Translations under genes and position numbers: made by a program
The notes under the pieces: generated by a model
The model's input: only the letters and a program-made list of their open reading frames with translations
Told to the model about the DNA's origin: nothing
The model's database searches: none
Source: a virus
Taxonomy: Duplodnaviria > Caudoviricetes
Length of the DNA stretch: 64,000 nt
Direction: 5' to 3' (one strand)
Virus record (IMG/VR): IMGVR_UViG_2881966637_000004
Span: 1-64,000 of that record
Part shown: piece by piece, positions 1-60,875 of the stretch
How the letters are laid out: each line of letters opens with the position of its first letter
Position numbering within the stretch: the stretch's first letter is position 1

Positions 1-1257
1 ATGCCTTCCGTTAAAATCCTGCAGCATCCCAACAAGACCTATAAAGATGGCACCGTGCCGATCATGCTGCGCGTCATCCTGCCGGGCGAGAAAGCCTTTC
101 GGGTACTCGACCGCATCAACCCCAAACACTGGAACGAAAAGCAACACTGCGTCCGGGCGACGCATCCCGACTACCGGCTCATCAACGAGCGGCTGGACGT
201 GGCCCGGCGCACCGCCGAGAACCTGATCCGTACCACTCCAGGCATCACAGCGCGGCAGGCGGTGGGCAGCGACCCCATCGAAGAGCCCAAGCCTGTTACT
301 GTGCCGGGTCTACTGGCCTGGGGCAAGCAGTACACCGACGCCCGGCGCGACGGCCGCCAGCTGCGCACCGCCGAGAAATACGACGGGCACCTGACGGTTA
401 TCGGTCTGTACCTGGCCAGCATCAACCGGCAGGACATCCCGCTGGATGAGGTAGACGACAGCTTCGTGACGGGCTGGCGACGCTGGGAGGTGAGTGAGCG
501 CGGCAACAGCCCCAACACCATCGCCAAGCGGTTCGACTTCATCAAGACCCTGTTACATTCAGCGCATCGCCGGGGTGTCATCAGCGTCTGGCCATGTCCG
601 GACAGTAAGGTAGCCGAGGTAAGAACCCGAAAGCCCCGGCTCACCAGGGCGCAGCTGGATGTCTTACGGGATGCGTCCCTGCCCGACCGGCTGGCGGTGA
701 GCCGCGACTGTTTTCTCTTGCAGTACTATCTCTACGGGGCCAGGATCAGCGACGTGCTGCAGCTGCAGGCGTCGAACATCAGCCACGTCGATGGCGAGGG
801 TCGGGCGGTGGTCGGCTTTGTTGAGCAGAAGACCGGGGCGGTGCGTACCATCCGGCTCCACGCCGAGGCCACTACCCTGCTGCAATCCTACCGGGCCAGG
901 CATACGCCGGGCTATCCATTTCTGCTGCCGCTGGTGCGCTTCACGGCCGATCCGACATGGTCGGCCAATGAGCATCGTAAGTTTCTCAACAAAGCGGTGG
1001 AGTCGGCCAGTGCCAGGGTGAACAAGGACTTGAAGGACATCGCCAAAGCGTGTGGCTTCACGGTGCATCTGACTACGCACGTCGCCCGGCATACGTTCGC
1101 CCGGCTGGCCGACGAGACGGTTGCTGATAAGCGCAAGATTGCGGGGGCACTGGGCCATACCCGTTTCGCCCAGACGGAGAACTATCTGGACGACCTGCGC
1201 CAGCAGGACATTGATGCCGCGATGGACGAGGTGTTTGCAGCCTTTCGGGGTAGATGA
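1..1257 (+). CDS. int: Tyrosine recombinase / phage integrase (Bacteroidota type, with arm-binding and SAM-like N-terminal domains)
   Basis: Catalytic set visible: GARISD (R), EQKTG (K), HVARHTFA (HxxR), LGH and TENY (Y). The N-terminus KDGTVPIMLRV...INPKHWN resembles Arm-DNA-bind_5. Confidence 0.95.
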   Translation: MPSVKILQHPNKTYKDGTVPIMLRVILPGEKAFRVLDRINPKHWNEKQHCVRATHPDYRLINERLDVARRTAENLIRTTPGITARQAVGSDPIEEPKPVTVPGLLAWGKQYTDARRDGRQLRTAEKYDGHLTVIGLYLASINRQDIPLDEVDDSFVTGWRRWEVSERGNSPNTIAKRFDFIKTLLHSAHRRGVISVWPCPDSKVAEVRTRKPRLTRAQLDVLRDASLPDRLAVSRDCFLLQYYLYGARISDVLQLQASNISHVDGEGRAVVGFVEQKTGAVRTIRLHAEATTLLQSYRARHTPGYPFLLPLVRFTADPTWSANEHRKFLNKAVESASARVNKDLKDIAKACGFTVHLTTHVARHTFARLADETVADKRKIAGALGHTRFAQTENYLDDLRQQDIDAAMDEVFAAFRGR

Positions 1258-1493
1258 GAGTATGGTTGGTGGTTTAATGGCGACTCCTGCACCCTCGTCA
1301 AGTCCCACCCTATCATGTTACCACAGTTGGAGCAGCACTAGCCATAGCTTTCTTCGTCCATTCGTCGCATGGTGCTACACTTGGCGCAGTACGGACGCCA
1401 GCCAGGGTAGCCACCACCCTTGGTTGTTGCTTCCGCGATCATGGCCTTTCGCTGTTCGTCGTCCAGTCCTTCGTAGTAGGTTATTGATTTCAT
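1182..1493 (-). pseudogene. Small Cys-rich (Zn-ribbon-like) phage gene interrupted by an in-frame TAG
   Basis: Starts by ATGA overlap with the upstream gene. Reads MKSITYYEG...PYCAKCSTMRRMDEESYG*CCSNCGNMIGWDL, with TAG at 1338-1340 between two Cys pairs. Confidence 0.5.
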
Positions 1494-2038
1494 GGTTTGG
1501 TAATTGTTTCGAGTGATTGAACGAACTTATCCAGGATGGTATGCACTTTGCACACTACCTCGTAGGGTGGTGCCGGGCGGTCGTTATACTGGTAGGTCTG
1601 CCACTGCCCCCATTCGTAGGGGCTCAGCTGGTCATGCAGCAGGGTCTTGACCGACATCTCGGGCCGGTCCAGAAAGTGGCGCAGCTCATCGGCGTAGGCT
1701 ACCGTATCGCTGGGTTTGCCCAGAGCGCGGAACTCGGCGACGATGCCAGCAAGAAAGGCCAGCAGCGTGTGGCGCGTCTGGCCGTCGAGGATGTACTTCT
1801 TGTATTTGTCGGGCTTCTTATAGCCGTTGACCACGTTATTGAGCAGGGTCGGGTAGCGCAGGTTCTCTCCCAGAACCTTGAGCTTGAGCTGTCTACTGGC
1901 AAGCAGCAGCAGCAGGGGGTCGGTATCGGTTGCTTGCATAGGGTGTCGGCTGACCACCGGGGAACAGTTGTCGGTTTGGTTTCTGTTCCCCGGTGAGGGA
2001 GATAGCGCGGTCAGGTGGTAGCGTTTGCGAGTTGCCAT
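1490..2038 (-). CDS. Hypothetical phage protein
   Basis: Member of the leftward operon. Start reassigned to ATG at 2038, just after the stop of the upstream gene. Confidence 0.65.
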   Translation of the reverse strand: MATRKRYHLTALSPSPGNRNQTDNCSPVVSRHPMQATDTDPLLLLLASRQLKLKVLGENLRYPTLLNNVVNGYKKPDKYKKYILDGQTRHTLLAFLAGIVAEFRALGKPSDTVAYADELRHFLDRPEMSVKTLLHDQLSPYEWGQWQTYQYNDRPAPPYEVVCKVHTILDKFVQSLETITKP

Positions 2039-2045
2039 AGGTTGA

Positions 2046-2714
2046 CTATGTCCACTGGTTTGACTGGCCTTCCAGAATACCCATCTCAATACAAATCTGA
2101 CTGATTGCCGAGTCGAGCAAGATAGCCTGGCCCGTTGTCGTGCGGCCCCACAGGTAGACACTGCCGCCATCAAGGACGGGATAGCCGGCAGCTTTTAGCT
2201 TGCGATACAGCCAGCCGGAGACGGCCCACCACTCGTAAACCTCGTACTCTTCGCCGGCCTCCATGTTGACCTCGTCGGTCGCGTCCAGGATGGTGATGCT
2301 GCCCCAGCTTTTAATGCCGAACACCTCACCCTTGAGGTCGAAATAATACTCGGCTACGGCTTCGCCATCCCGAATGTCAACGCCCTCGTCAGAGAGGAAA
2401 GCAGCCTCTTCGTTGGTTATCTCAAGGATGGTATCGCCGTCCTCGCCGTCCTCGTTAATGCGGTCGAAGTGCGCCTTGAACTCACCGCGCTCATCAAGAT
2501 CAATGGTATAGCGAAATTGATTATCGGCTACCGTCTCGGGACCGATCAAGTTTTCGATGTCGTCGTAAGAGAAGGGCGCGTCGCCATCTTCGTGGCTCTT
2601 TTTGAGGATGTAGTCAACCATTGTATTCACATTGCAGAATACTTCACGGCCAACGAATTTACTTTTGATGTCTTGGTTGATGATACTGTTAACGTCACCT
2701 GTGTATGCAGACAT
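2046..2714 (-). CDS. Conserved hypothetical phage protein (EWWAVSxWL...WGRTTTGQAI family)
   Basis: Acidic protein with the C-terminal motif YEWWAVSGWLYRKLK...WGRTTTGQAILLD, recalled from other phages. Start reassigned to MSAYTG. Confidence 0.75.
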   Translation of the reverse strand: MSAYTGDVNSIINQDIKSKFVGREVFCNVNTMVDYILKKSHEDGDAPFSYDDIENLIGPETVADNQFRYTIDLDERGEFKAHFDRINEDGEDGDTILEITNEEAAFLSDEGVDIRDGEAVAEYYFDLKGEVFGIKSWGSITILDATDEVNMEAGEEYEVYEWWAVSGWLYRKLKAAGYPVLDGGSVYLWGRTTTGQAILLDSAISQICIEMGILEGQSNQWT

Positions 2715-2760
2715 GATAGTTGACGCCGGTTGACCTATGCCCCGGCAGGTTTGGGTTATA

Positions 2761-3003
2761 CTAGTTGTCTTTTCTGGTGAGCGAGATGTATTGACGGCCC
2801 TCGTTATATGCCATGTAGTACTTGCCCACATGGTATATGTCGTCTTCGGTGCCGTTACCGAGCGTGTCGGACGTTTCGTACTCGTCATGCACATCGAAGG
2901 TTTCGATGAGAATGGGCAGCAGTTTGGCGTTGCCGATGGCATTGCGGATGTTGATAAGCACCTGGGCTTTTTCGCCCTGAAAGAAAAAGATTTGACTAAA
3001 CAT
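2761..3003 (-). CDS. Hypothetical protein, 80 aa
   Basis: ORF fills the gap in the operon, downstream of a promoter-less AT-rich leader. Confidence 0.55.
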   Translation of the reverse strand: MFSQIFFFQGEKAQVLINIRNAIGNAKLLPILIETFDVHDEYETSDTLGNGTEDDIYHVGKYYMAYNEGRQYISLTRKDN

Positions 3004-3075
3004 AGTGGTGGTTGATTAAGACGGTCCCGCTCCGGCCCGTCCGGGGAGCCGGTACCGGCCGTAGCGGTTGACGGA

Positions 3076-3711
3076 TTAAATCATGGTGCCATCGGCCTCA
3101 AACTCGTAGTTATTGGCTTCGCAGGCTTCGATAAAGGCTTCCATACTGTTGGCATGTTCAAGGTCGGCAGCGCAGTCTTTCGCCCACTCCTCAAAGCAGG
3201 TGTCAAGCAGGTCTTCCAATGTGACAGACGGGTCGGGCTTCTTCATGTAGGCATAGATGGGTTCAAGCAGGGAATCGTCGATGCAATAGCCCGTCAGGAC
3301 GCCCCCCGTTTCCAAGGTGATGCGCGACCGGCGTTCTACGCGGCCAACGCCCGGCGTCAGGGTGTTGGTCTTACGGTTGAACGATTTGGAATACCAGCGG
3401 CCTTTGTAGATGTCGCCGCGCAGGTTATTCCAGAGCCAGGCGGCGAGTCGTGGACCGGACAGGTGGGCCACATCGTCAACATCGTGGTGCCATTCATCAT
3501 GGAACCCGTATCGTACCTCTCCCCCATTTTCGTCGTACTCCCAGTGTTTGATCTTAATGGGAAAGAGTTTGGCAAAGGCTTCGAGGGACTCTTTGTTTTC
3601 ACTATGCCAACCGTAGTTGTCGCCGTCTTTGATATAGTCCATGTGAGCTTGCTCTCTAGCCTCTTCGCTCAACTCATTGACGGTAAATACCGATACTTCG
3701 ATGGTACGCAT
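3076..3711 (-). CDS. Acidic early phage/plasmid protein (xxFxxxELSEEARE...YEFxxDG family)
   Basis: N-terminal MRTIEVSVFTVNELSEEAREQA and C-terminal CEANNYEFEADG match a widespread uncharacterised mobile-element family. Confidence 0.7.
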   Translation of the reverse strand: MRTIEVSVFTVNELSEEAREQAHMDYIKDGDNYGWHSENKESLEAFAKLFPIKIKHWEYDENGGEVRYGFHDEWHHDVDDVAHLSGPRLAAWLWNNLRGDIYKGRWYSKSFNRKTNTLTPGVGRVERRSRITLETGGVLTGYCIDDSLLEPIYAYMKKPDPSVTLEDLLDTCFEEWAKDCAADLEHANSMEAFIEACEANNYEFEADGTMI

Positions 3712-3856
3712 GACTGTAGGGGTTACTGGTGAAGAAATGGGTAGACGTGAATCATAAACTGACCGCCGATCAGAAACAGCCATGCTAAGCAGAAGGCTAA
3801 GATGATCAAGACGGTCAGGGCGTTGAGCCAGGTAAACTTTCGCTTTCGGAGTGTGC

Positions 3857-4072
3857 TCATACGTTTCGGTATCTGGCTACGGTCTGGATCAGTTCACAGG
3901 CACCGCCGAAGAGCCTGACCTTATCGGCTGCTATCGGGGAGTCGATTTTGTTTTTGACCGCCCAGACTACGGATGCGGCTTCGGAGTGGGTCATCTTGCC
4001 GATGAACATGGCCTGACGGATGAGGTTTGGGTAGCGTTGCGCTACTGCGTGGAACTTGCTCGTCGTGATCAT
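3857..4072 (-). CDS. Hypothetical protein, 71 aa
   Basis: ORF in the operon orientation, preceded by the tandem motif at 4079-4094. Confidence 0.55.
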   Translation of the reverse strand: MITTSKFHAVAQRYPNLIRQAMFIGKMTHSEAASVVWAVKNKIDSPIAADKVRLFGGACELIQTVARYRNV

Positions 4073-4092
4073 TATAGGGTTGATTTAAGTTG

Positions 4093-4120
4093 ATGCCGGA
4101 GCATACGTATGCTCCGGCAT
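4093..4120. repeat. Perfect 28-bp palindrome
   Basis: ATGCCGGAGCATACGTATGCTCCGGCAT equals its own reverse complement. Intergenic. Confidence 0.95.
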
Positions 4121-4124
4121 GTGA

Positions 4125-4379
4125 CTAGTTGTGTTGAACTGCAAACAGGTCTGCTGGTTGGTTAAGCAGGGCGAGAGCGGTTTCGTGCAGGTTGTCAATA
4201 GACTCCCCGAGTTGCTGCTGCTGCTCGAAGAGTTCATTGATGTAGTCGGCATTGGTGCGGTTCTGTCTCATCAGGTCGATGAGGTGGTCGCGGTAGTGGC
4301 TCATGGCGGCCAGTATCATTTCAGCTTCGCTGTACTGCTTTTTACCACGGAAGGCGGAGATATTGATAGACAGGGTCAT
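4125..4379 (-). CDS. Hypothetical protein, 84 aa (helical)
   Basis: ATGA overlap with the upstream gene at 4376-4379. Confidence 0.65.
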   Translation of the reverse strand: MTLSINISAFRGKKQYSEAEMILAAMSHYRDHLIDLMRQNRTNADYINELFEQQQQLGESIDNLHETALALLNQPADLFAVQHN

Positions 4380-4888
4380 GGCTTGGGTTTGGTCAGGATT
4401 TGGTTATACATTTCATCAAGTACCGGCTCGGGATACAGGCCGAGTTTGCCCCATGTAGCATCTTCTACGTACATGAGTTTATAGTCGCCGGCAACTTTGG
4501 TTCTGCCTGTGGCGATCTTGCCGAGTTCTTTGACTTTGTCTAACCAATCGTGCTTGCCTACCATTTCCAGGTATTCACGCATGGTATAGCGTATTTCATG
4601 GCCGGGCCGTCGAAGCGGGACGCTCTGTGGCGTTGCCTTTGATGTGCGGTCCAGCTCCGTCCGGTGCGCCGAATCGGCCAACGCGGTTTTCCGGATTAGC
4701 TTTGATAGCTCAAGGCGTTCCTGTTTGGAGATTGAGCCAAAGTCGTCGGACTCGGACGCCAGAAGGAACAGTTTGAGCAGCGCGTTGCCGGCTGGGGTGT
4801 TCGGCATGGATGCCGATGGCTCAAAAGCGGTGGTGTTCGCTTTTGGGGGTTGGAAACCTGCTGGTTTCTGGGTAGGTTTGTTTAGCAT
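4376..4888 (-). CDS. Antirepressor-like protein
   Basis: The C-terminus YTMREYL...ELGKIAT...EDATWGKLGLYPEPVLDEMY resembles the small C-terminal domain of KilA-N/BRO/AntA antirepressors (...LG..A......DPRFG.V..YP..VL). Confidence 0.55.
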   Translation of the reverse strand: MLNKPTQKPAGFQPPKANTTAFEPSASMPNTPAGNALLKLFLLASESDDFGSISKQERLELSKLIRKTALADSAHRTELDRTSKATPQSVPLRRPGHEIRYTMREYLEMVGKHDWLDKVKELGKIATGRTKVAGDYKLMYVEDATWGKLGLYPEPVLDEMYNQILTKPKP

Positions 4889-4906
4889 AGTATTTTATGC
4901 TGTTTT

Positions 4907-4946
4907 GCCTCGGCGACTGGTCTCACGCAGTTGTCGGGGCTTTTTT
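4907..4946 (+). terminator. Intrinsic terminator on the + strand (antisense to the early operon)
   Basis: GCCTCGGCGACTG-8 nt-CAGTTGTCGGGGC followed by TTTTTT. The three G-U pairs form only in + strand RNA. Confidence 0.7.
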
Positions 4947-5024
4947 ATGACCGTATAGTAAATTCTATGGGTATAGGCTGGCCGCTGGGTGATTTTTGGT
5001 TCCTGCTATCAACCGTATCCTGCA

Positions 5025-5447
5025 ATGCATGACCTTGCCTCCGTCGCTAAGATTGTTTTCCAATCCGCTGCTTCTCTTTTGTTGTTGGTTCTGGCTTTCT
5101 GGGTGATTGATTTTATATTCTTTGAGGTTTTAGTGGCTGGTTTTCTATATGTGGCTGCGTATAACACGTTGCTGGCTTTCGCTACAGCGGTGCTTTTTTA
5201 CCGGCTCTTGTGGCGTTACTACGTCCGCGCATCTGAGATGGCGTTTACGTATGCCTTGTCCGGCTTTACCTATGGGCCGTTACTATCCGGCGTCGGTGTA
5301 TGGGGACTTTTATTCAACCTGTTCTATATGGTGCACCGCATCTGGACGATGCAGGATAGTTATGACACATGGATAGTGTTGTACTCAGTCCTTTTCAGTG
5401 TGGCCGCTGGCTTACTGACCGTCTCCATGATTTCCGATCCGGAATAG
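5025..5447 (+). CDS. Multi-pass membrane protein (moron-like)
   Basis: About four hydrophobic segments, lower GC, opposite strand to its neighbours. Confidence 0.7.
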   Translation: MHDLASVAKIVFQSAASLLLLVLAFWVIDFIFFEVLVAGFLYVAAYNTLLAFATAVLFYRLLWRYYVRASEMAFTYALSGFTYGPLLSGVGVWGLLFNLFYMVHRIWTMQDSYDTWIVLYSVLFSVAAGLLTVSMISDPE

Positions 5448-5465
5448 CATTGAGCGTGGACAGAA

Positions 5466-5810
5466 CTATGGTTTGGTCGTAGCAAAGGCACCGTAATTGA
5501 TATGGTCAATCAGGGCGCATTTGGTGGGCAGGTCGAGGTCGTCAACGTAGATCAGGTCGTTGTTTATTTCTGCGGCAACCCATTCCTCTCCGTCAAAGAA
5601 TATACGCACGATGGGTTGGGCATTGACTCGCATCCCGTTATAGAGTATATCGTCCGGCGAGTCTGGCAGGACCACACCCTCGCTATCTTCCTTGTACTGG
5701 TGATACCACCATTTGCTTTTATCTAATGTCCCAAGTGATTTCTCAAGCATCTCATTGGTGACGGCTTCGCAAGCCTTGTAGGCTTGCAGTATTTCCTGTG
5801 TGTTGGTCAT
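5466..5810 (-). CDS. Hypothetical protein, 114 aa
   Basis: ATGA overlap with 5807-6064. Confidence 0.65.
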   Translation of the reverse strand: MTNTQEILQAYKACEAVTNEMLEKSLGTLDKSKWWYHQYKEDSEGVVLPDSPDDILYNGMRVNAQPIVRIFFDGEEWVAAEINNDLIYVDDLDLPTKCALIDHINYGAFATTKP

Positions 5811-6064
5811 GGCTCTGGAAAGTAAATGGGTTCGTCGTCAATGGGGTGCTGATCGACGGATACGGGTTCTATTACGGTAGCGTGCCAGTACATCCCGTTT
5901 TCGAGTGGGATATAGATAATGTCGCCTTCATTGAAGGCATGGGCGTTGGGCCACCGGACGACTTCGGTTTGTCCGTGGTGCCACACTTTAAGGGCGTTGG
6001 GACGTTGATACACGGCCACACCGAGCCCAATCATGGACAGGGTGATAAGGATGGCTTTTTTCAT
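5807..6064 (-). CDS. Small exported/membrane-anchored protein
   Basis: Signal-like N-terminus MKKAILITLSMIGLGVAVY. Confidence 0.65.
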   Translation of the reverse strand: MKKAILITLSMIGLGVAVYQRPNALKVWHHGQTEVVRWPNAHAFNEGDIIYIPLENGMYWHATVIEPVSVDQHPIDDEPIYFPEP

Positions 6065-6066
6065 GG

Positions 6067-6267
6067 CTAATCAAGGGTTGATAGGGTTCTGTCAGAGATT
6101 AACTCGGTTACGTGGATGGACGAAACCAGGGTGTGTCCCGTCTCAATGGCGGCCTTATTTTCTTCGGTATCCAGTACGCCCAGTATGTTTCGGGCTATTT
6201 GCAGTCGATAGCCGTTGATGTCGCCGTCAAAGACGATGCAGAGTTTGATTGTGATTTCGGTTTTCAT
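6067..6267 (-). CDS. Hypothetical protein, 66 aa
   Basis: Tightly packed in the operon. Confidence 0.6.
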   Translation of the reverse strand: MKTEITIKLCIVFDGDINGYRLQIARNILGVLDTEENKAAIETGHTLVSSIHVTELISDRTLSTLD

Positions 6268-6271
6268 GGGG

Positions 6272-6538
6272 TTACTCTTGAAAGCGTAGATTCCATTCGA
6301 GCAGGCACATACCGTAGAGGTCTACCCGGCGGCTCTGGCACAGCTCAAACGCCTGTTCCATCAGGGCGTCGAGCCGGCCGGCCATCTCGGGCGTATAGAA
6401 GGGCTGGTTTTCCCTCACGGTGTCCTTAAAGGAATCGTCGGGGTGAAAACAAACACGGTCGATGTCGTATAAGTGTACGATCATCAGGTGTACGTCGGTC
6501 AGGGTGTTGATACTGGCCGGCAGGCAGGGCTTATTCAT
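6272..6538 (-). CDS. Hypothetical protein (FHPDD motif)
   Basis: The VCFHPDDSF...LMEQAFELC pattern is recalled from Bacteroidota mobile elements. ATGA overlap. Confidence 0.65.
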   Translation of the reverse strand: MNKPCLPASINTLTDVHLMIVHLYDIDRVCFHPDDSFKDTVRENQPFYTPEMAGRLDALMEQAFELCQSRRVDLYGMCLLEWNLRFQE

Positions 6539-6642
6539 TGGCTGAGCAGGATAGCGGCCAGCAGGGCCAGCGCAATCAGGGTGGTGGCGATCCGCAGCAC
6601 CAGCTCTGACTGCTTTTTGAGCTTATGCAGTTCCTTTGACAT
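6535..6642 (-). CDS. 35-aa membrane peptide (not in the ORF track)
   Basis: MSKELHKLKKQSELVLRIATTLIALALLAAILLSQ. TAATG overlap upstream and ATGA overlap downstream. Confidence 0.65.
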   Translation of the reverse strand: MSKELHKLKKQSELVLRIATTLIALALLAAILLSQ

Positions 6643-6926
6643 TAGTTGACCCCATTGAGTTTGTCATTGTCTCTCTCTTCATTGAAGCTGTAGAGGGCCA
6701 TTTCTTTGACTTCGGTAAACGAAGCACCCTGACGCCACAAAAAGTGCATCAGATCGGTGAGCAGGTCTGTGCCTGCCTGTACGGGTTGCTCATCGGACTC
6801 TTCATAATGTTCGTCCAGGATTGCGCGGATTTTCTCAACGCGCTCATCTACGGATAGCATGGCTATAGATGGTTTTTGGTTGTGTAGGTATCCTACTACG
6901 ACCCCGAAAGGTCGTTTCGCTCTCAC
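6642..6926 (-). CDS. Hypothetical protein
   Basis: Acidic small protein (TDLLTDLMHF). The true start may be MLSVDER. Confidence 0.6.
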   Translation of the reverse strand: MRAKRPFGVVVGYLHNQKPSIAMLSVDERVEKIRAILDEHYEESDEQPVQAGTDLLTDLMHFLWRQGASFTEVKEMALYSFNEERDNDKLNGVN

Positions 6927-6962
6927 TAGAGCTCATCAGGCAGGCTATTTGACAAAGGTTGA

Positions 6963-7223
6963 CTACTCCCATATGAGAAATAGCTCACCGTTGTTATAGT
7001 ATTTTGTGAACTCCTCAAACTCAACCGGGTCTTTAACCTCGTCTTTATACTGTTGGTATTCGTGTTCAACTTCATCCGTTATTTTAAAAGTCCTGAGTAT
7101 CCCGTCATTTAGCTCTCTGGATTTTTCTTCAATTCTCATTTGGCCGTTGACTGCATCGTCAACAGTATCGTACTCGAAAGTTTCTTCACCATATTCAGCC
7201 GAAGTCATTGTTAGAATCACCAT
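6963..7223 (-). CDS. Acidic hypothetical protein, 86 aa
   Basis: Flanked by identical 17-bp TATTTGACAAAGGTTGA copies at 6946-6962 and 7262-7278. Confidence 0.65.
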   Translation of the reverse strand: MVILTMTSAEYGEETFEYDTVDDAVNGQMRIEEKSRELNDGILRTFKITDEVEHEYQQYKDEVKDPVEFEEFTKYYNNGELFLIWE

Positions 7224-7282
7224 AAACTTGCCCGTTATGCCGATAGCGCAGCGTTAATGGTTATTTGACAAAGGTTGATGGT

Positions 7283-7822
7283 CTACTTTGCTACTGGTGT
7301 CAGGCCGGCGATTTTGAGGATAGATTCAGCAGGAACGCGACCAGCTGCCAGCTCGGTGCGAACCAAAGACATGGCTTCTGTTTTGGTCATTTTCTTTTCC
7401 CGAACGGGTTTGGCGGGCTTTTCATTTTTGGCCCGATACGCTACAAGGCCGGCTACTTCACCGGCTTTTTCACGGACTACTTTACGGGCGTCAGCCAGTT
7501 CGTTGTATGCCTGGTCAATAGCTGCGAGTGTAGCAGCCGCATTATACGCGCCCTCAGGCACGAGCCGGGTAATGGCATGGCTTTTCTCATCTGCCAGGAA
7601 TGATTTGGTAGCCGCTTTAAAGGCCAGTTCAGACGAGACTTTCGGCTCAGACTTTAGGGCCAACAAAAGTTGCAGATACTTGGGCAGACTGGCATTGGCC
7701 TTGATCCAGCGTCCGGCGTCTTTTGGCCGTGAATAGCCGTTAGACAAGGTTACGCCCATTGCGCCATTCACTTTGATTTCTACGGCTTCGCCGTTTTGAC
7801 GTACTCCATTGAAAAATTCCAT
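7283..7822 (-). CDS. Basic hypothetical protein (first gene of the leftward operon)
   Basis: Start reassigned to MEFFNG at 7822. Ala/Lys-rich. Confidence 0.7.
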   Translation of the reverse strand: MEFFNGVRQNGEAVEIKVNGAMGVTLSNGYSRPKDAGRWIKANASLPKYLQLLLALKSEPKVSSELAFKAATKSFLADEKSHAITRLVPEGAYNAAATLAAIDQAYNELADARKVVREKAGEVAGLVAYRAKNEKPAKPVREKKMTKTEAMSLVRTELAAGRVPAESILKIAGLTPVAK

Positions 7823-8190
7823 GATCGTATAATTTAAAGGTTGATAAAAGTTGAAAACAAAAGTCCCAACGGGACAATGGCGACCAGTCGGATAACGAAT
7901 CCGAATAACGGCGGGCCGTTGCTGGTCTGGTAAAAAGTATTGTTGTTTTTTATTCCGGCTAACTCCGACTTGCCTATCGTTCATCTACACCGTTCAGAGC
8001 CATTTCGCACCAATATGATTGGTCAGACTCCTACCTATCAGTACTACCGCTATAGTGCGGGTTCCGTTGACTGTAAGCCGGCTGACGAGTATGTCACACC
8101 CGTTCCGTTTGTTTCGGTCTATCAGGGCCGATACTGTCAGACCGTTGGTGGTCAGGTCCGTTCTGTTGTCGTTGCCGATTGAGAACATGA

Positions 8191-8221
8191 CAAAGATACG
8201 AGTAATATTTTAAAAAACAAC
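8191..8221 (-). promoter_or_regulatory. Bacteroidota sigma-A-type promoter driving the leftward early operon
   Basis: On the minus strand, TTG (-33) then 19 nt then TATCTTTG (-7; + strand CAAAGATA at 8191-8198). Confidence 0.6.
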
Positions 8222-12095: not shown

Positions 12096-12098
12096 ACG

Positions 12099-53007: not shown

Positions 53008-54054
53008 ATGACGGCAACTGCATCCACGCTTTCCCAGACGCCCGAGGACTTCTTCTCCAACGACCTGCCGGCAGAAGCCCCGGCAACCCCCGGTGGACAG
53101 GCGGCCCCAGCCAGTCCGGCACCCGCTCCGGCAACACCGCCAGCCGCGCCGGCTGCACCCGCCACGCCAACGACTACCCTACCGGCTCCGGCAACACCGC
53201 CCGCCGATCCGGCCCAGCCTGCCACACCACCGGCCGACGGATGGGGTGACGAGTGGGAAGACCCCGCAGCTCCGGCAGCTCCGGCTGCGCCCGCCACGCC
53301 AACGACTACCCCACCGGCCCCGGTAGACGCCAACCCCGTACTGAGCCGGCTGGCCCAGCGGCTGGGTCTGAACGAATTACCCGCCGACCCGGAGGCCTGG
53401 GAGCGGGCGGTTGATCAGTACACCGCCAGTCAGGTGCAGGTGATGCCCGACGAACTGGGACAACTCAACAGCCACCTCGCCCTGACGGGCAAAGACTTTC
53501 TCAGGGCCGAGATCGCGGCCCGCTTCCGTGACCCGGTGGTCAACGGCCCGGACTTCGTGGAGAATAAACTCCTCGAACTCGAAGACAGCGGACGGCTCGA
53601 AGAAGCCGAGCGGTACTACCGCCAGGAGCGGACGCAGCAGCGCGACCAGATCGTGACCCAGGCCCGTCAGCAGCAGCAGCAGGCCGAGCAGCAGGCCCGT
53701 CAGCAGATTGCCGCCATCGAGCAGCACATCGACGGAGCCAAAAGCCCGGACGGGCAGGCGTATCCGCAGCGGGTGCGCGACGAGATCAAGCGGTTCATCT
53801 TCTCGGGTGAGCTGGCCCAGACGCTGTACGGAAAAGAAAACGCCGACGCCCTGCTGGACGTAGCCCTGCGCTACCACCCCAAGCTGCGGGAGCAGTACAC
53901 CAAACGCTACGAAGCCGCCCTGCTCAAGCGCGGGGAGTCGTCGGCGTACCGGAGTCTGGAAAACACGACACTGAACGTAGGCTCAGGCTACGGCGCACCC
54001 CAGCAGGGTAGCCAGATCGCCAAAAGCGACGAAGACTTTTTCTCGAACAACTAA
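53008..54054 (+). CDS. Capsid scaffolding protein with Pro/Ala-rich repeats
   Basis: Immediately upstream of the capsid gene. PAAPAAPATPTTT repeats and a Q/E-rich coiled coil. Confidence 0.75.
   Translation: MTATASTLSQTPEDFFSNDLPAEAPATPGGQAAPASPAPAPATPPAAPAAPATPTTTLPAPATPPADPAQPATPPADGWGDEWEDPAAPAAPAAPATPTTTPPAPVDANPVLSRLAQRLGLNELPADPEAWERAVDQYTASQVQVMPDELGQLNSHLALTGKDFLRAEIAARFRDPVVNGPDFVENKLLELEDSGRLEEAERYYRQERTQQRDQIVTQARQQQQQAEQQARQQIAAIEQHIDGAKSPDGQAYPQRVRDEIKRFIFSGELAQTLYGKENADALLDVALRYHPKLREQYTKRYEAALLKRGESSAYRSLENTTLNVGSGYGAPQQGSQIAKSDEDFFSNN
53125..53311 (+). repeat. Internal direct repeats in the scaffold gene
   Basis: CCCGCCACGCCAACGACTACCC at 53158-53179 and 53290-53311. GCTCCGGCAACACCGCC occurs twice. 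Confidence 0.85.
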
Positions 54055-54120
54055 ACCAATGTGGCCTCGGGGCTACCGTGTGAGGGCTTTCTATCCACAC
54101 CACTTTTTATCTAACAGAAT

Positions 54121-55647
54121 ATGGCAAAGATTATCAAGCAACAGTTCGGGGCCGGCACACTGGACCTGCCCTTCCTGGGACTGGCCCTCGCCCGGCAGCC
54201 GCAGATGCTGCAGGAGTTTATCGTCAGCCGGTTTGCTTCCAACAACCTGGCTCTGACGACGCTCTTCCAGGGTATCTATCCCGAGTCGCAGGGCGAAGAG
54301 GTGCTGGGTAGCAACCAGGTGAGCTGGGAGGTCTACAACCTACCCGAAAAGCCCATCTACATCGACGGCATCGTGGGTACACCGAAGGTTGGCAACGACA
54401 TTGAGGTAGACCTGACCGAAGGCTGGCTCCGCGCCGGGGCCAAGCTGCGGCTCGAAGACGGCCGGACCCTGTTACACCTGCAGACCAACGGCTCTCCCCG
54501 CGCCAACGGTATCGTCCGCTACCGGGGTCGGATCGTGGGCAACAACACGGAACACGAAGCTCCGTCGTGGCTTTTCGAGCGCAACCGGGCGGCCAACTAC
54601 CAGACGGCCAACTACGAGGAGGGCTCCCACATGGGCCACCCGATGTACTACGGGACGGGCGACAAGTACAAGCAGGCGATGTCTACTCACCGCCACGACG
54701 CCGACCTGACGGGCGACGCCCTCTCGGAAGTAACGATCTTCGAGACGACCCGCGAGATACCAAACTCGGGTGGACGCACGAAAACCTACCGGGGCTGGCT
54801 GCCCGAGTTCCTGCGGAGCCCAACAACCTCGCTGCTCGACTTCCACCAGCGGCACTGTGAACTGGATCACATTTACGGTCAGAGCAACATCAACTTTGAG
54901 ACGGGCGAGATTTTCAACATCAACGAAACCAACGGCTCGAAGAAGGTGATGATGGGTGATGGGCTTATTGCTCAGCTCGACGGCGCGTACACCAAATGCT
55001 ACGACCCGAAGGATTCGCTATCGTCTATCCGTAACAAGGTGAAGAATATCATCACCTATATGTCGGCCCACTGGAACAACCAGGACTTCCTGGAAATGGT
55101 CGTGATGGGTGGCATCGGGGCGGACGCCGTCTTCCAGGACGTGATGGCCGAGTTACAGGCCAGCTCGGGCGTTCAGGTGTGGCGCACGCCAGACTCAGAA
55201 GGCAAAGTCGTTGTCGGCCTTCGCTTTTCGGAGTGGATCATTGGCGGCATGGGCAAGATCAAGTTCGTGCGTAACAACAGCATGGGCGACATCACCGCCA
55301 AATCGCGCATGATCAACTACAACGGGGTTGCTCTCAACGCCGAGTCGTTCGATATGTACTTCATGCCGATTGGGATGATGTCGAACGGCAAGACCAACAT
55401 CCGCTTCTTCTCGAAGGGTAAGACGGTCAACGGCCAGCAGATCAACCGTTCGCTGGTGTTCAGCCACATCCAGGGCGTGACCGGCTACCTGTCCAACAAT
55501 CTGTCGAAAGCCTCGGCGGATGGGCTGTCGGAGTATGCTAACCTGGTGGGCACCTCGCGGGATGCCGAGCAGTTCCATCTGCTCAGCCAGAAGATGCTGA
55601 TCGTTACCAACCCAACCGAGTTCGCCCGGTTGCTGGTGTACCGATAG
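54121..55647 (+). CDS. Major capsid protein (crAss-like HK97 fold), 508 aa
   Basis: Size; ANYEEGS..G; YGQSN; VMMGDGLIAQL; VVMGGIG; GKIKFVRN; position between scaffold and head-completion genes. Confidence 0.85.
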   Translation: MAKIIKQQFGAGTLDLPFLGLALARQPQMLQEFIVSRFASNNLALTTLFQGIYPESQGEEVLGSNQVSWEVYNLPEKPIYIDGIVGTPKVGNDIEVDLTEGWLRAGAKLRLEDGRTLLHLQTNGSPRANGIVRYRGRIVGNNTEHEAPSWLFERNRAANYQTANYEEGSHMGHPMYYGTGDKYKQAMSTHRHDADLTGDALSEVTIFETTREIPNSGGRTKTYRGWLPEFLRSPTTSLLDFHQRHCELDHIYGQSNINFETGEIFNINETNGSKKVMMGDGLIAQLDGAYTKCYDPKDSLSSIRNKVKNIITYMSAHWNNQDFLEMVVMGGIGADAVFQDVMAELQASSGVQVWRTPDSEGKVVVGLRFSEWIIGGMGKIKFVRNNSMGDITAKSRMINYNGVALNAESFDMYFMPIGMMSNGKTNIRFFSKGKTVNGQQINRSLVFSHIQGVTGYLSNNLSKASADGLSEYANLVGTSRDAEQFHLLSQKMLIVTNPTEFARLLVYR

Positions 55648-55681
55648 TCAACTATAGTCAACGCAAGTTGACGACGCATAG

Positions 55682-55716
55682 CGGGGCCGATGCCGGCCAG
55701 TGTCGGCCCCGTATTT
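55682..55716 (+). terminator. Hairpin after the capsid gene (attenuator/terminator)
   Basis: CGGGGCCGA...TCGGCCCCG stem followed by TATTT. Confidence 0.6.
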
Positions 55717-55740
55717 AACCAACCCAAATCCAGTACGACA

Positions 55741-56730
55741 ATGCACGAAGTTCAGCTCAGACGAAAGAGTTTAAACCCCCAAATCAAACGGTTCGCCCCG
55801 TGCAGCCTGGGGGCGTTCATGGCTCCCGGCGAAGATGGCGTTGACCAGCGGTGGTACTACACCGACGGACGCCGGACAGCCACGGGCGAATTTGAGGAAG
55901 TAGACCTTGAAATCGGCGACGGTGGTGTCATCAAGATCGACATCGACCTGCCGCACCACGCCCACAACTTAGAGACACTGCAGAAGGCGCAGTCGATGAT
56001 ACCCTCGAAGCTGCCCCCCGGTGTGCAGATTGAGATTATCGACAGCCGGCTGCTGGCCGAAGATGGCATCAGCCATCACCTGCTCGTCGCTGAGCTATAC
56101 GGCAAGGTCGAAGGATTGTCCACCGAGATGATGCAGAGCCTGGCCCGTGTGTTGGGATTTGGCCGGATGGAAGGACGGCTGGATACCGAGGTAAAATACT
56201 TCGTGCTGCGTAAGATCAAAGAAGACACCAAGCGGGTCCGCGATCTGCTGGACGCCGAAGATCAGGAGGTGCAGATCGAGGTCGCCAAAGGTCTTGAGGC
56301 CGGATTCATCATCCACCGCGACGGGCAGTACACCTACAACGACCAGTTTCTGGCGACGACGGAAGAAGCCATGCGGGCCAAACTCATGGGCGATGGTAGT
56401 CTGTTCACCGACCTCAAGCTGCGCAACGGCAGACACTTCGCCAGCACCACCCCCCTGCGCCGGCAGGCACCACCCGTCGATACGGTTACCACGAGTGTCG
56501 GGGATGCCTCGAAGCTGGGCGGTGGGTCAACGGGCGTCAACGTCAACGACCTATTCAAGCGGGGTAAAGATAAATCGCACATCTCCTACCAGCGTACCGC
56601 CGAGGGAGAGCGCAAGCAGGGCTACTACTTCGGACAGATGTTTCTGGGCAACTCGGAAAGCACGGCCGTAGCGATGCTGTCGGAGAACGCACTGGTTGCT
56701 GAACTACTCGAAAAAGCCCTGGCAGCATGA
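55741..56730 (+). CDS. Conserved capsid-module protein following the MCP (crAss gene-75-like position)
   Basis: Position. A.VLG...D.EV...L....KED and GQYTYNDQFLATTEEA patterns. Start at MHEVQL. Confidence 0.6.
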   Translation: MHEVQLRRKSLNPQIKRFAPCSLGAFMAPGEDGVDQRWYYTDGRRTATGEFEEVDLEIGDGGVIKIDIDLPHHAHNLETLQKAQSMIPSKLPPGVQIEIIDSRLLAEDGISHHLLVAELYGKVEGLSTEMMQSLARVLGFGRMEGRLDTEVKYFVLRKIKEDTKRVRDLLDAEDQEVQIEVAKGLEAGFIIHRDGQYTYNDQFLATTEEAMRAKLMGDGSLFTDLKLRNGRHFASTTPLRRQAPPVDTVTTSVGDASKLGGGSTGVNVNDLFKRGKDKSHISYQRTAEGERKQGYYFGQMFLGNSESTAVAMLSENALVAELLEKALAA

Positions 56731-57377
56731 CCTGGATGGAAGCCCATGATCGGATCACGTTCTTTCTCTCGCAGGAAGGACGCCCCTGGTACAACCAGGA
56801 AGAGATCGACATGGCCTTGCAGCAGGCGCAGCGCGACTGGCTCCGGCAGGAGCTGTCGGCAGCGGAGAGCAACGGCGAAAGCCGCGAATCATTGGGACTC
56901 ATCACCCGGATTGTGACGGGTGAGGGCACGGTGATCGACATGAGCGCGGATAAGTTCAAGGGGCTCGTCCGGCTCCTGTCGATAGAGTGCCGCTGGAAAG
57001 ACCCCCAGACGGGTTCGGCGGGTACGTTCGTGGCGGTACGGCCCGTCAGCCGCGACGCGCTGGCCCGCACGATGCGCAACCCCTTCGGGCGGGCGACCGA
57101 CGCCCAGCCGCTCTACGTGATGGGGCAGCCCAATGTGCAGCCGGGCAGTGAGCCGGCCCTGCAGGTCACCCTGCTGAGCGAGTCACCGCCTTCGTCCTGG
57201 CGCGTTTCGTTCGTGGTCGAACCCGCCCAGCCGGACGGAGCAAATAAGCCGGACGATCTGTGGACGGGCGTGGGGCCACTGCAGCAGCAGCAGATCATCC
57301 AGCGGGCCGTGCAGTGGCTCATGCACCAACAGGACAACACACCCGCCTGGCAGCGTCAGGCGCAAACCCAGACTTAA
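56727..57377 (+). CDS. Head-tail ring/adaptor protein
   Basis: N-terminal WYNQEEIDMALQQAQ and C-terminal QQQIIQRAV resemble crAss-like ring proteins. ATGA overlap. Confidence 0.65.
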   Translation: MTWMEAHDRITFFLSQEGRPWYNQEEIDMALQQAQRDWLRQELSAAESNGESRESLGLITRIVTGEGTVIDMSADKFKGLVRLLSIECRWKDPQTGSAGTFVAVRPVSRDALARTMRNPFGRATDAQPLYVMGQPNVQPGSEPALQVTLLSESPPSSWRVSFVVEPAQPDGANKPDDLWTGVGPLQQQQIIQRAVQWLMHQQDNTPAWQRQAQTQT

Positions 57378-57405
57378 ATAAACCACACCAGTTTTTCTTA
57401 CCGCT

Positions 57406-58347
57406 ATGGCCAATATCACAGAGTTCGCCCACGGGCCGCAGATACCCGGATCGCTCGTCTACGACGGCACAGACCTGCTCATACCAGCCCTTGACCCGGC
57501 GGTAAAACCTGACCGAGCCATCATCCTGGGCACGGGAGCAGCCAGCTCCATCGCCCTGACGCGGGGTGTGGTCGTGGCTACCGACGAGCTGGGCAACAAG
57601 CTGCGCTTTAAGTACAAAGACATCGAAGAGGATAGCGTCGTGGTGACCACCTCGGCTACCTCCGTCGCCCGCGTGGTAGACATCCAGGCCGTGGCAATGG
57701 CAACGGGTGGGCTGATCTCGCTCTCGCTCTTCCGCCACGAAGGCCGCCAGGAGTACCCCTACCGGGAAGACTACAGCGTCGATCTGGGCACGACCAACAC
57801 CACCGCTGCCAACGTAGCGGCCAAGATCATCGCCGAGATCAACCGCGACCCCAAACGGATCGTCACCGCATCGGAAGGGGCCAGCTCAACGAAGGTGCGG
57901 CTCACCTCGCTCAAGCCGGGGCTTGGCTTCACGGTCACCAAAGGCGACGGCTTCACCGACGAGACGGTCATCACCGAGCAACGCGCCGAGTTCGCTACCG
58001 GCCCGACCCTGAAAGACATCATGCCGGCCGGCTCGTACACCACGGCGCAGGTTGCTACGGGTAAGACCTACAAGGTCATCTCGCTGGTGGCTTACGAACA
58101 CATTGACCTGGCCAATGCGGGCTTCATCGGCGGACGGGATGGTCTGCAGGGAGCCAAAGCGTTGCAGCCGTCGTCGATCTGGCTGCTGTTCGATCTGGCG
58201 ACGACCGAGTCGGGCACGGGATCAGGTACGGGTACGGGAGCCATCCCGCCCAGCGACTTCGACAAGGCGATCAGCATCCTTACCGGAGCCGAGCCGCAGG
58301 CTGCCTACCTGTCGCGTCTGGCTTCATCCACACCGATTAACGCATAA
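57406..58347 (+). CDS. Auxiliary capsid / structural protein, 313 aa
   Basis: Beta-rich, Thr/Ala-rich, AAKIIAEINRDP. Followed by terminators, consistent with a high-copy protein. Confidence 0.55.
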   Translation: MANITEFAHGPQIPGSLVYDGTDLLIPALDPAVKPDRAIILGTGAASSIALTRGVVVATDELGNKLRFKYKDIEEDSVVVTTSATSVARVVDIQAVAMATGGLISLSLFRHEGRQEYPYREDYSVDLGTTNTTAANVAAKIIAEINRDPKRIVTASEGASSTKVRLTSLKPGLGFTVTKGDGFTDETVITEQRAEFATGPTLKDIMPAGSYTTAQVATGKTYKVISLVAYEHIDLANAGFIGGRDGLQGAKALQPSSIWLLFDLATTESGTGSGTGTGAIPPSDFDKAISILTGAEPQAAYLSRLASSTPINA

Positions 58348-58440: not shown

Positions 58441-58454
58441 CTCCCCCCTTCGCC

Positions 58455-60875
58455 ATGCAGCCAAACCCATCGGTTATCACCCCCTACCAGAACCCCTACC
58501 AGACCGTCGCGTCGGACAAAGCCAATGACTTCGGTGACTACCCCCTGCTGGTGGTGCCCGAAGGAAAGCCCGGCTCGGCCGAGTACGAGCGAAAGCTGGA
58601 CGCCCTCTTCAAGCGGCTCCACGACTGGCTCTCCTCGCGCTGGCTGTATCGCAACGACACCAACGGCACCGGCCCCTTTGCGCGGAACCCCCTCAAAAAC
58701 TACAAGCGCGTCAACGGTACGCCCGACGAGGCCGACCACGCCGACATCCTGGCTCCCTTCGGACAGGCGGGCCTCTCGCAGCTACAGGCCGCCGACTTCT
58801 ATTCGACCAACCTGGGGGTGCTGGCCGGTATCCTGGCCGAGTCGCCACTGCGCTACAGCGTGGACATCCTCAACCCCGAAGTCTCCGAGCGGGCACTGGA
58901 TAAAGTAGCCCAGATGGGAGCCGAAGGCTTTCTGCGGGCCGCTGCCCAGCAGGCCAGCCAGGCGACCGGCACCGACCTGCAGCCGGGCCTGACCGACCCG
59001 TCGATCTTCGTGCCCGATAACGAAGACGAAGTCATGGCCCCCCTGACGGAGAAGGAAGAGATCGCGTCGGTGACCTACGACATGCTCAAGGCCGCCAGCG
59101 AGGAGACGCGGCTCGAACGCATCCTGGCCAACTGCTTCGATGATCTCGGCGTGGTCAACGCCGAGATGATGGAGATACGCATTGAGAACGGCAAGCTCCG
59201 GGTGGACCGGCTGACGGGCAACGAAGTCGCCTGGCTGGGACCGGCCGAGATTGAGAAGGCGGACCAGGCCGACGGCTGGGGTATCTTCCGGATGCTGCCG
59301 GCGACCCAGTGCGTGGCCCAGTACGGCGGCTACATGGAAGAGGTAGACACGCTCAAGGCGTTTAAGAGCTGGCTGGAAAACGGCATGAAGGATCAGCCGG
59401 CTGCGGTAGCCGGGCCCAAAGCCCAGACGAGCTGGTCGCTGCGAAACGCCCTGCCCTACGTGAGCAATGGCGACACGCCGGCCCTGCTCGAAAGCCGTAT
59501 CTACGTTAAGCTGGTGCGCTTTCTCAAGTTCGCCCTGACCCTGGACGGGTTGGAGCTCAGCGACGAGCAGGTCAAAAAGTTCAGAAAGCGGCAGCTTGAC
59601 GAGGCCGAGCGGGTACTCTATACCCGGCTGACCGACGAAGAGGCCGAGGTGCAGAAGGCGCAGGGGCGGGCGATCCACACCATTCCCATCGTCGAACTGT
59701 GGGAGTCGGTGCGGCTGGGCGGTGAGCACCTGATCTACCGACGCCCCGCGCCGGGGCAGATCAGACGGCAGGGGGAGCGGGCCAATGTGAAGTATCCCAT
59801 CATCGCCCACTTCCAGCCGGGCCAGAGTCTGGTCACCAAAGGTGTTCCGCTCTACGAGCTGCACACCAACATTATGACCAAGCTCCGCAAGCTCGTCGCC
59901 CTGTCGGGCATGAAGACACTGGTGATCGACGCCAGCGAGGTGCCGGAAGGGTCAAGCGTGGACCAGATGCTCATCGAAGCCAACGAGATCGGGGTGCTGG
60001 TGATCAACAGCCAGCGCACGTCAGGGGCTCCCACGAAGGAAAGCTACAAGCACATGACCACCGTTGATCTGAGTCTGAACGACAACGTGGTTCACCTGCT
60101 CAACCTGGCCGCCACGCTGCGGGATATGTACGACAACATGACTGGGGTGACGCCGGCCATGAAAGGACTCTTCGCCAACCGCGAGGCACTGGGCCAGACG
60201 CAGATGGCCAAGCTGCAGGGTACGCTGATTTCGCAGCGGCACTTTGCGGCTCATTCCGAGTTTGTGCGGGAAGGCCTTGAGGTGATGGTCAACCTAGGCA
60301 AGTATGTCTGGGCGGGGCAGGGTCGCAAGCGCATCCTGCTGGGCGAGGGGGGTGTGAAGACCTTGCGGCTGGCCGAGGAGATAAACAGCTACGACTACGG
60401 CATCTACCTGTCGGATTCGATGAAGGCCGCCAGGGATAAGGAGTTTTTGATGAACGTCGCCCAGCAGGGCATGTCGAGCGGTCAGGTCGGCCTGAGAGAG
60501 ATCATCTCCATGTACTACGCGGATAACCCCTACAAGGTACTCAGCATCGTCAGAGACGGGCTATCGGCTTACGAGCGGATGGAAGGGCAGATCAAGCAGA
60601 TGCAGGCGGAGAACCAGCAGGCGATGGCCGAAGCGGCAAAGGCCAGGGCGCAGGCTCCGATAGAGGTGGCCAACATCACCGGGCAGTGGAAGCTGGAAGT
60701 GGAAAAGCTCAAACAGGAGTTCGAGGCAATGCGTCAGGAAGGCAAGCTGCAGCACGACGCCGACAAGTTCGACGTGGGCAACCAGGTAGCCGTCAAGCGC
60801 GACGCCATGCGCCTGACGGCCCAGGAAGAGATGGCTAATCCGCAGCCGGAGGTGGTGCCAGTGGACGCCCGCTAA
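58455..60875 (+). CDS. Portal protein (crAss-like), about 806 aa
   Basis: PLRYSVDILNPEVSERALDK, LWESVRLG, YPII, LVTKGVPLYELHTNIMTKLRKL, G++++ID.SEVP, TGVTP and C-terminal Q/A-rich barrel. Confidence 0.88.
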   Translation: MQPNPSVITPYQNPYQTVASDKANDFGDYPLLVVPEGKPGSAEYERKLDALFKRLHDWLSSRWLYRNDTNGTGPFARNPLKNYKRVNGTPDEADHADILAPFGQAGLSQLQAADFYSTNLGVLAGILAESPLRYSVDILNPEVSERALDKVAQMGAEGFLRAAAQQASQATGTDLQPGLTDPSIFVPDNEDEVMAPLTEKEEIASVTYDMLKAASEETRLERILANCFDDLGVVNAEMMEIRIENGKLRVDRLTGNEVAWLGPAEIEKADQADGWGIFRMLPATQCVAQYGGYMEEVDTLKAFKSWLENGMKDQPAAVAGPKAQTSWSLRNALPYVSNGDTPALLESRIYVKLVRFLKFALTLDGLELSDEQVKKFRKRQLDEAERVLYTRLTDEEAEVQKAQGRAIHTIPIVELWESVRLGGEHLIYRRPAPGQIRRQGERANVKYPIIAHFQPGQSLVTKGVPLYELHTNIMTKLRKLVALSGMKTLVIDASEVPEGSSVDQMLIEANEIGVLVINSQRTSGAPTKESYKHMTTVDLSLNDNVVHLLNLAATLRDMYDNMTGVTPAMKGLFANREALGQTQMAKLQGTLISQRHFAAHSEFVREGLEVMVNLGKYVWAGQGRKRILLGEGGVKTLRLAEEINSYDYGIYLSDSMKAARDKEFLMNVAQQGMSSGQVGLREIISMYYADNPYKVLSIVRDGLSAYERMEGQIKQMQAENQQAMAEAAKARAQAPIEVANITGQWKLEVEKLKQEFEAMRQEGKLQHDADKFDVGNQVAVKRDAMRLTAQEEMANPQPEVVPVDAR

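Follow-up and report, generated by a model that had tools for sequence, protein, structure and literature searches.

Can a virion of the crAss type be carried by a phage that integrates into the chromosome of its host? The usual description of crAss-like phages is that they cannot lysogenise and lack lysogeny modules, and the contrary hints consist of repressor genes, integrases that have been "noted", and a pair of incomplete prophages in Parabacteroides (PMC11054128, PMC9980608, PMC8776839). The question is raised by a 64,000-nt stretch of DNA (hereafter the window, G000:C21:385951-449950), which lies within a 723-kb contig of a 7.37-Mb Spirosoma genome. An earlier reading of this stretch (the original prediction) proposed a temperate sister lineage of the crAss-like phages from Cytophagales; the host, a Spirosoma, agrees with the last part of that proposal. 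On the evidence given below, the window is very probably part of a temperate prophage that is integrated at a tRNA gene, encodes a crAss-type particle on an otherwise ordinary temperate chassis, apparently brings no polymerases of its own, and stands outside Crassvirales. The prophage appears to be intact, with an apparently complete gene set.

The original prediction ended the element at position 60875. This is the end of the portal gene, and the prophage extends past the right end of the window: it measures 80,689 bp, from window -135 to 80568, and its left four fifths fall within the window (past the window end, the window coordinate equals the L002 coordinate + 64000). A 20-kb early and lysogeny module had hence been missed. 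The ends are marked by a 15-bp exact direct repeat, GCAGAGAGGAAGAGA, located 135 bp upstream of the integrase ATG and at the 3′ end of tRNA-Ser(GGA). ARAGORN placed this gene, together with tRNA-Ser(CGA), 16.5 kb beyond the right end of the window, and detected no tRNA gene inside the window. No third copy of the core was found on contig C21 with up to 2 mismatches, and no further exact copy anywhere in the genome. Of 54 congeners, 53 share the conserved left flank, and in the closest of them (G011, 95% identity) both tRNA-Ser genes abut it, which represents an empty site; base for base, the attB of this congener equals the left arm of attL, the core and the right arm of attR. A second empty site was provided by an independent contig from public run X1, which differs from the flank at 8 of 981 bases (99.2% identical) and continues through the core into the body of the tRNA gene. 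In each of the public sequencing runs, at most 35% of the junction words are present. From the paired 15-bp cores and the two empty sites we conclude that the 80,689 bp are a single insertion. Thus, the flanks, where the original prediction had proposed to look for attachment sites, contain attL, attR and a regenerated tRNA gene, and by its sequence the integrated element is a phage of temperate type.

The tyrosine integrase, which had been predicted to be intact, appears so: three domains are recognized, and the catalytic motifs (R...HxxRH...Y) are readable in the translation. In the circular (attP) form an 18-bp direct repeat, TTATAACCNGNTTATACC, is present on both sides of the core and nowhere else in the element; these repeats would be the arm-type sites contacted by the arm-binding domain of the integrase. 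A further motif, RTCAAC-N4-RTCAAC, occurs 17 times in the element versus 4 times in the remaining 7.29 Mb of the genome. Its copies, at 2719-56526 and on to 79867, lie in the integrase arm and in the late and early regions, they are oriented like the genes around them, and many are found at gene junctions. The motif is absent from a second prophage of the same genome, described below, and it may serve as an operator, terminator or promoter that is specific to this phage. Attachment sites, empty sites and the element-wide motif together link the integrase to the virion genes in one insertion, as the original prediction had assumed.

The virion genes were compared with known phages at several levels. 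TerL, the 508-aa major capsid protein (MCP), the portal and the 1237-aa muzzle had all been named in the original prediction, and each was confirmed by a profile match, the portal being 830 aa long from a TTG start where about 806 aa had been expected. When homologues of the core virion proteins were searched among 50,697 GenBank phages, the muzzle matched 41 records, all of them crAss-like phages, and the portal 68, of which the named ones are crAss-type and none belongs to another named phage family. All capsid matches below 0.01 (tblastn) were Crassvirales MCPs, and the best match of TerL was cr126_1 (E 2e-4). The identities of these core genes to GenBank crAss-type phages are 20-26%. Small profiles, built from each window protein and its homologues in related prophages, were compared with PhiCrAss001 (Kehishuvirus primarius, Steigviridae, Crassvirales; protein roles from PMC10172136) and detected gp44 (1.8e-48), gp20 (3.4e-23), gp19 (9.4e-15), gp32 (8e-7) and gp33 (6.7e-6), with 21-24% identity where the proteins are alignable. 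A ring protein is present in both phages.

Gene order points in the same direction. The series of the 348-aa protein, MCP, and the 346-, 216- and 313-aa proteins parallels gp31, gp32, gp33, gp34/35 and gp36 of PhiCrAss001, and that of the 225-aa protein, ring protein, spike, muzzle, and the 1114-, 533- and 2545-aa proteins parallels gp40, gp42/43, gp44, gp45, gp46 and gp47, with similar protein sizes. The two colinear blocks are rearranged relative to PhiCrAss001, and TerL and the portal gene stand apart, unlike in every reference fetched. Judged by homology, the virion genes are specifically crAss-like and represent distant relatives of those of crAss-like gut phages. All large genes are open, with lengths that match those of the relative in Spirosoma oryzae. 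The ring proteins of the original prediction fared less uniformly: one was supported by an ESM Atlas match, and the others give weak or positional signals. This ring protein has only two homologues in a collection of 5.8 billion proteins, and the Pfam ring models PF25702 and PF25710 gave no significant match in this genome, the ring protein included; a single-sequence AlphaFold2 model of it reached a pLDDT (predicted local distance difference test) of 30 and was discarded. The N-terminal part of the 1407-aa tail spike may, on a weak signal, be ring- or adaptor-like. The predicted large cargo proteins correspond by position to three genes, of which those for the 1114- and 533-aa proteins have homologues in the related prophages. 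A phmmer search of the MCP and the 2545-aa protein against the PDB returned nothing useful, a search for related loci with the muzzle or MCP as query gave no match, and for the predicted HU/IHF-like gene no PF00216 match was obtained in the prophage.

To place the phage, TerL homologues were gathered as 215 clusters (50% identity; E <= 1e-3) among 1.84 billion proteins, and trees were built with FastTree (147 rows) and IQ-TREE (58 and 60 rows). All 11 Crassvirales references of the International Committee on Taxonomy of Viruses (ICTV), together with Flavobacterium phage Fpv3, formed one clade with a support of 96-99. The window TerL fell into a separate, mostly metagenomic clade, outside the one with Intestiviridae, Steigviridae and Suoliviridae, and within an inner 17-row clade (support 100) that also holds the TerLs of the S. 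oryzae relative and of the second prophage. The TerLs of phi38:1 (Pervagoviridae) and phi18:3 (Pachyviridae) were on the side of the window (support of 90-91 in the Shimodaira-Hasegawa-like approximate likelihood ratio test, SH-aLRT), a placement that is unsure because of long branches. A constraint that united the Crassvirales-containing clade with the 17-row clade cost 120 units of log-likelihood (lnL) and was rejected by the approximately unbiased (AU) test (p 0.001), the tested groups having been named once the tree had been seen. A TerL profile of the window's clade scored 96-119 bits with crassviruses and 66-73 bits with phi38:1 and phi18:3, and in the clusters of 20 TerL relatives the named organisms were Spirosoma oryzae and an uncultured Arsenicibacter. 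In all three trees TerL therefore branches outside the Crassvirales clade. Of the sister lineage that had been proposed, the temperate type and the crAss-type virion stand, but its TerL is not the exclusive sister of Crassvirales. Neither is the phage a temperate crassvirus, since in addition the replication and transcription genes of Crassvirales were not found by Pfam, PHROGs or direct comparison. By these criteria the phage belongs to a deep, mostly uncultured lineage that adjoins Crassvirales and is outside it.

The early region has the features of a lambdoid-style module: an XRE repressor candidate divergent from a leftward early operon, an O-like initiator and a replicative helicase. In the repressor candidate, no S24 peptidase domain was recognized. 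The XRE regulator and the Xis-like protein of the original prediction were also recovered, both in a low-GC islet within the late genes; the two XRE proteins, that of the islet and the repressor candidate, were considered as paralogues and this was rejected. An antirepressor had been placed inside the window, yet no Bro-N or ANT match was obtained in the prophage, and the sole antirepressor-type gene, Rha, is located beyond the window. In Pfam scans of nearly all open reading frames (ORFs) of >=100 aa in the 80.7 kb, no DNA polymerase (family A or B) and no primase were detected, the replication proteins being DnaB, the sliding clamp and the O-like initiator only. A further Crassvirales trait is the virion-packaged multisubunit RNA polymerase (PhiCrAss001 gp47/gp49/gp50; phi14:2 gp66). 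No Pfam, PHROG or PDB match to such an enzyme was seen, although a divergent one may escape these searches; neither phmmer nor the small profiles revealed homologues of PhiCrAss001 gp47 or gp49, and no D-x-D-G-D motif is conserved in the 2545-aa protein.

These results suggest the following scheme. As the sequence shows, the integrase, of the heterobivalent type, recombined the 15-bp attP core with the identical 3′ end of tRNA-Ser(GGA), and insertion of the circular phage genome regenerated this gene. The XRE repressor candidate would govern the divergent early operon, as in an ordinary temperate phage; this operon encodes the O-like initiator, DnaB helicase, sliding clamp, Rha, a Rad52-type recombinase and a methylase. 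Because no polymerases of its own were found, transcription and replication would presumably be performed by the RNA and DNA polymerases of the host. Homology and gene order in common with PhiCrAss001 predict a podovirus particle of the crAss type, with a crAss-fold capsid, a portal, a tail barrel built of rings, a muzzle and three cargo proteins that are ejected. With such virion genes on a temperate chassis, this virion type would not be confined to non-integrating phages. Several points weigh against the scheme. Induction and particle formation are predictions from the sequence. The cargo C1/C2, gp47, gp31, gp36 and ring 3/4 assignments are drawn from position and size, with insignificant E-values. 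The absence of a virion RNA polymerase is a negative search result, and the 2545-, 859-, 641- or 856-aa protein could conceal a highly divergent enzyme. Finally, no orthologue of the window integrase lies next to the S. oryzae prophage.

Other histories were also considered. The element could be a cryptic prophage, integrated and no longer inducible, that persists as a genomic fossil or a source of morons. Its closest relatives are rare (of 401 genomes in the order, 5 match crAss_MUZ, and of 301 in the family, 5 match the TerL profile), and one genome, G009, carries an apparently degraded muzzle in two pieces. We regard this as unlikely here: no large ORF is disrupted, modules for lysis, packaging, head, tail, replication and the switch are each represented, the att sites and the tRNA gene are intact, and the insertion is missing from a 99.2%-identical relative, which argues for a recent gain. 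A composite, in which the integrase and the left arm are a separate integrative island beside a non-integrating crAss-like genome, would account for the lack of an integrase orthologue beside the S. oryzae relative and for the difference in GC content between the left arm (52%) and the virion genes (62%). The phage-specific motif, which spans the modules and is present in the left arm too (2719, 4079 and 8831), and the single pair of cores, one per end, argue against it. Moreover, the entire 80.7 kb are absent as one block at both empty sites, the RepL-like gene and the gene at 2046-2942 have counterparts at the corresponding place of the S. oryzae prophage, and the two 18-bp arm repeats pair the integrase side with the far end, so that we consider a composite highly improbable. 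For an assembly chimera, with a phage contig joined to the chromosome, no support was found, and this possibility is practically negligible, since the element lies 386 kb inside its contig and is accompanied by a target-site duplication, a regenerated tRNA gene and a flank that the congeners share.

Another possibility is that the phage is a true member of Crassvirales that turned temperate and lost its polymerases. The muzzle is in its favour, with 716 bits to crAss_MUZ, near the 839-984 bits of crassviruses and far above the 44-46 bits of phi38:1 and Fpv3, and so is the fact that among GenBank phages the capsid, portal and muzzle match only Crassvirales. The capsid itself scores 48-56 bits to Crass_capsid, compared with 633-757 bits for crassviruses and Fpv3. 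Together with the position of TerL outside the clade of all 11 references (SH-aLRT 99), the cost of uniting the two TerL clades, the separation of TerL from the portal gene, and the DNA polymerase, primase and virion RNA polymerase that were not found, this makes membership very unlikely. We hence retain the reading of a tRNA-integrated temperate phage with a crAss-type particle, outside Crassvirales.

The window phage is not alone. Elsewhere in this genome resides a second crAss-related prophage, divergent from the first and delimited by a 20-bp repeat, TGCGGAGAGAGAGGGATTCG, that corresponds to the 3′ end of tRNA-Ser(GCT); in TerL, MCP, portal and muzzle it shares 22-26% identity with the window phage. 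Two spikes are far more similar: that at 45408-47339 shares 85% identity over 579 aa with the second prophage (C1 about 94.9-96.6 kb), and that at 14191-18414 shares 58% over 516 aa (C1 about 88.6-90.1 kb). This looks like a recent exchange of receptor-binding genes between two co-resident prophages. The closest relative is in Spirosoma oryzae (G050:C25), with identities of 38% for TerL, 44% for MCP, 38% for the portal and 39% for the muzzle; a host-like flank occupies 1-22 kb of this contig, the element runs to the contig end, and no PF00589 integrase was found on it. The two Spirosoma prophages, with their relatives from metagenomes (a TerL clade of 17-36 rows, 100% support), could form a family-level group of temperate podoviruses that retain the crAss particle, with its capsid, ring barrel, muzzle and cargo trio, and depend on host polymerases, a grouping to which we give slightly less than even credence. 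If true, the crAss virion module would be older than the lytic or episomal way of life of Crassvirales with its many polymerases, or would move without being tied to it. A bacterium of soil or water that can be cultivated, with att sites, an empty site and apparently complete phage genes would be a tractable system, in which particle induction, the function of a cargo trio without a virion RNA polymerase, and the relation of the virion module to the radiation of Bacteroidota podoviruses could be tested. A further relative, of about 100 kb, is chromosomally integrated at about 3.99-4.09 Mb of G583:C1; it has tRNA genes of its own, including one that ARAGORN called with an odd 4-base anticodon.

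No description of a crAss-related prophage in Cytophagales was found in the searchable literature, and comparison with described phages sets the window phage apart. PhiCrAss001 has a genome of 102.7 kb and a Bacteroidales host; the window phage has 80.7 kb and a Cytophagales host, and unlike PhiCrAss001 it carries an integrase, att sites, repressor candidates and an O/DnaB-type replication module, whereas the RNA-polymerase proteins, DNA polymerase and primase of the former were not found in it. The phages phi38:1 and phi18:3, of 71-73 kb, infect Cellulophaga (Bacteroidota); they share the TerL side with the window phage, but have no Crass_capsid match, and their muzzle match is absent or, for phi38:1, weak (about 46 bits). 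Fpv3 (Fipvunavirus, L065 / NC_031904.1) is outside ICTV Crassvirales, yet its MCP matches Crass_capsid with 633 bits, and its TerL nests beside Intestiviridae. The epsilon crAss-like phages (crAssE-Sib) carry repressor and antirepressor genes and were proposed to be temperate, with two incomplete Parabacteroides prophages; no integrase was found, the att sites were unresolved, and primase and virion RNA polymerase are kept (PMC11054128). In the window phage the integrase, attL/attR and an empty site are all resolved. Carjivirus communis, the prototypic crAssphage, is a phage-plasmid with a RepL-type gene and non-lytic persistence (PMC10983915); it is episomal, in contrast to the chromosomally integrated window phage, whose RepL match is below the threshold.

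Features of the prophage and of the second prophage of the same genome (window coordinates unless a contig is given; aa, amino acids; HTH, helix-turn-helix; MTase, methyltransferase).
Feature	Position	Strand	Remark
attL core, GCAGAGAGGAAGAGA	-135 to -121 (L001:19865-19879 = C21:385815-385829)		host terminator hairpin on left
P′-arm repeat, TTATAACCCGGTTATACC, 18 bp	-17 to 0		candidate arm-type integrase site
Tyrosine integrase, 418 aa	1-1257	+	PF17293 (Arm-DNA-bind_5), PF13102 (SAM_5), PF00589 (Phage_integrase)
Integrase-proximal accessory arm	1338-12735	both	small genes; GC 52%
phrog_26364 gene	2046-2942	-	homologue in S. oryzae relative
phrog_10310 gene	3076-3783	-	
RepL-like gene	8832-9434	+	E 0.0044, under Pfam cut-off; homologue in S. 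oryzae relative
WDGH-domain gene	11333-11728	+	PF25311, E 1.9e-29; integrase-proximal arm
Virion-module protein, 225 aa	12821-13498	+	matches unnamed viral clusters only; opens block colinear with gp40-gp47
Ring protein, 228 aa	13502-14188	+	CrAss_Ring_2-like; ESM Atlas score 0.98, TM-score 0.69-0.72
Tail spike, 1407 aa	14191-18414	+	collagen-like stretch and right-handed beta-helix
Muzzle, 1237 aa	18657-22370	+	PF25731 (crAss_MUZ), E 1.5e-214, 716 bits
Cargo-position proteins, 1114 and 533 aa	22420-27387	+	positions of PhiCrAss001 C1 gp45 and C2 gp46; synteny and size only
Giant protein, 2545 aa	27387-35024	+	gp47 position; conserved HExxH motif, residue 1576
Low-GC islet (46%)	35051-36184		inside late virion genes, 35 kb from integrase
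Islet ORF, 135 aa	islet	+	
XRE HTH gene	35466-35879	-	islet
HTH_17 Xis-like gene	35903-36184	-	islet
Fibre/spike set	36345-47993	+	291, 63, 859, 641, 856, 159, 139, 643, 215 aa
Beta-helix spike	45408-47339	+	within fibre/spike set
Holin candidate	48418-48939	+	four transmembrane segments; lysis cassette
Amidase_2 endolysin	48936-49373	+	lysis cassette
GT9 glycosyltransferase	49370-50242	+	heptosyltransferase family; overlaps endolysin gene end, late operon
Small-terminase candidate	50246-50899	+	by position
TerL	50899-52908	+	phrog_6681
Head block	53008-58347	+	colinear with PhiCrAss001 gp31-gp36
348-aa protein	first gene of head block	+	gp31 position
MCP, 508 aa	54121-55647	+	PF23898 (Crass_capsid), E 2.7e-15, 56 bits (cut-off 27)
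gp33 homologue, 346 aa	55690-56730	+	
216-aa protein	head block	+	gp34/35 position; weak ring 3/4 signals
313-aa protein	head block	+	gp36 position
Portal, 830 aa	58383-60875	+	TTG start; phrog_6547
Leftward early operon	60835-79462	-	in window to 64000
HNH endonuclease	61407-61943	-	
DUF1064 gene	63363-63815	-	
Sliding clamp	65338-66510	-	
MazG-like	66514-66978	-	
DnaB helicase	66993-68516	-	DnaB_C, E 2.7e-53
O-like initiator	68794-69810	-	phrog_270/391, initiator-like
Rha	70850-71668	-	antirepressor-type
Rad52-like	74925-75425	-	
N6/N4 MTase	77255-78310	-	
106-aa ORF and XRE repressor candidate	79527-80463	+	divergent; XRE at 79900-80463 faces leftward operon
P-arm repeat, TTATAACCAGCTTATACC, 18 bp	80480-80497		candidate arm-type integrase site
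tRNA-Ser(GGA)	80553-80641	-	ARAGORN
attR core	80554-80568		same 15 bp as attL
Second prophage	G000:C1:86627-184100		about 97.5 kb
Second-prophage integrase	C1:182774-183295	-	

A few minor points concern individual genes. The RepL-like gene of the original prediction is weakly supported, by the sub-threshold match listed above. The ORF at 48005-48331 looks like an alternative-frame artefact. The GT9 gene of the late operon has homologues in two related prophages, with 42% identity in the S. oryzae relative and 36% in G583.

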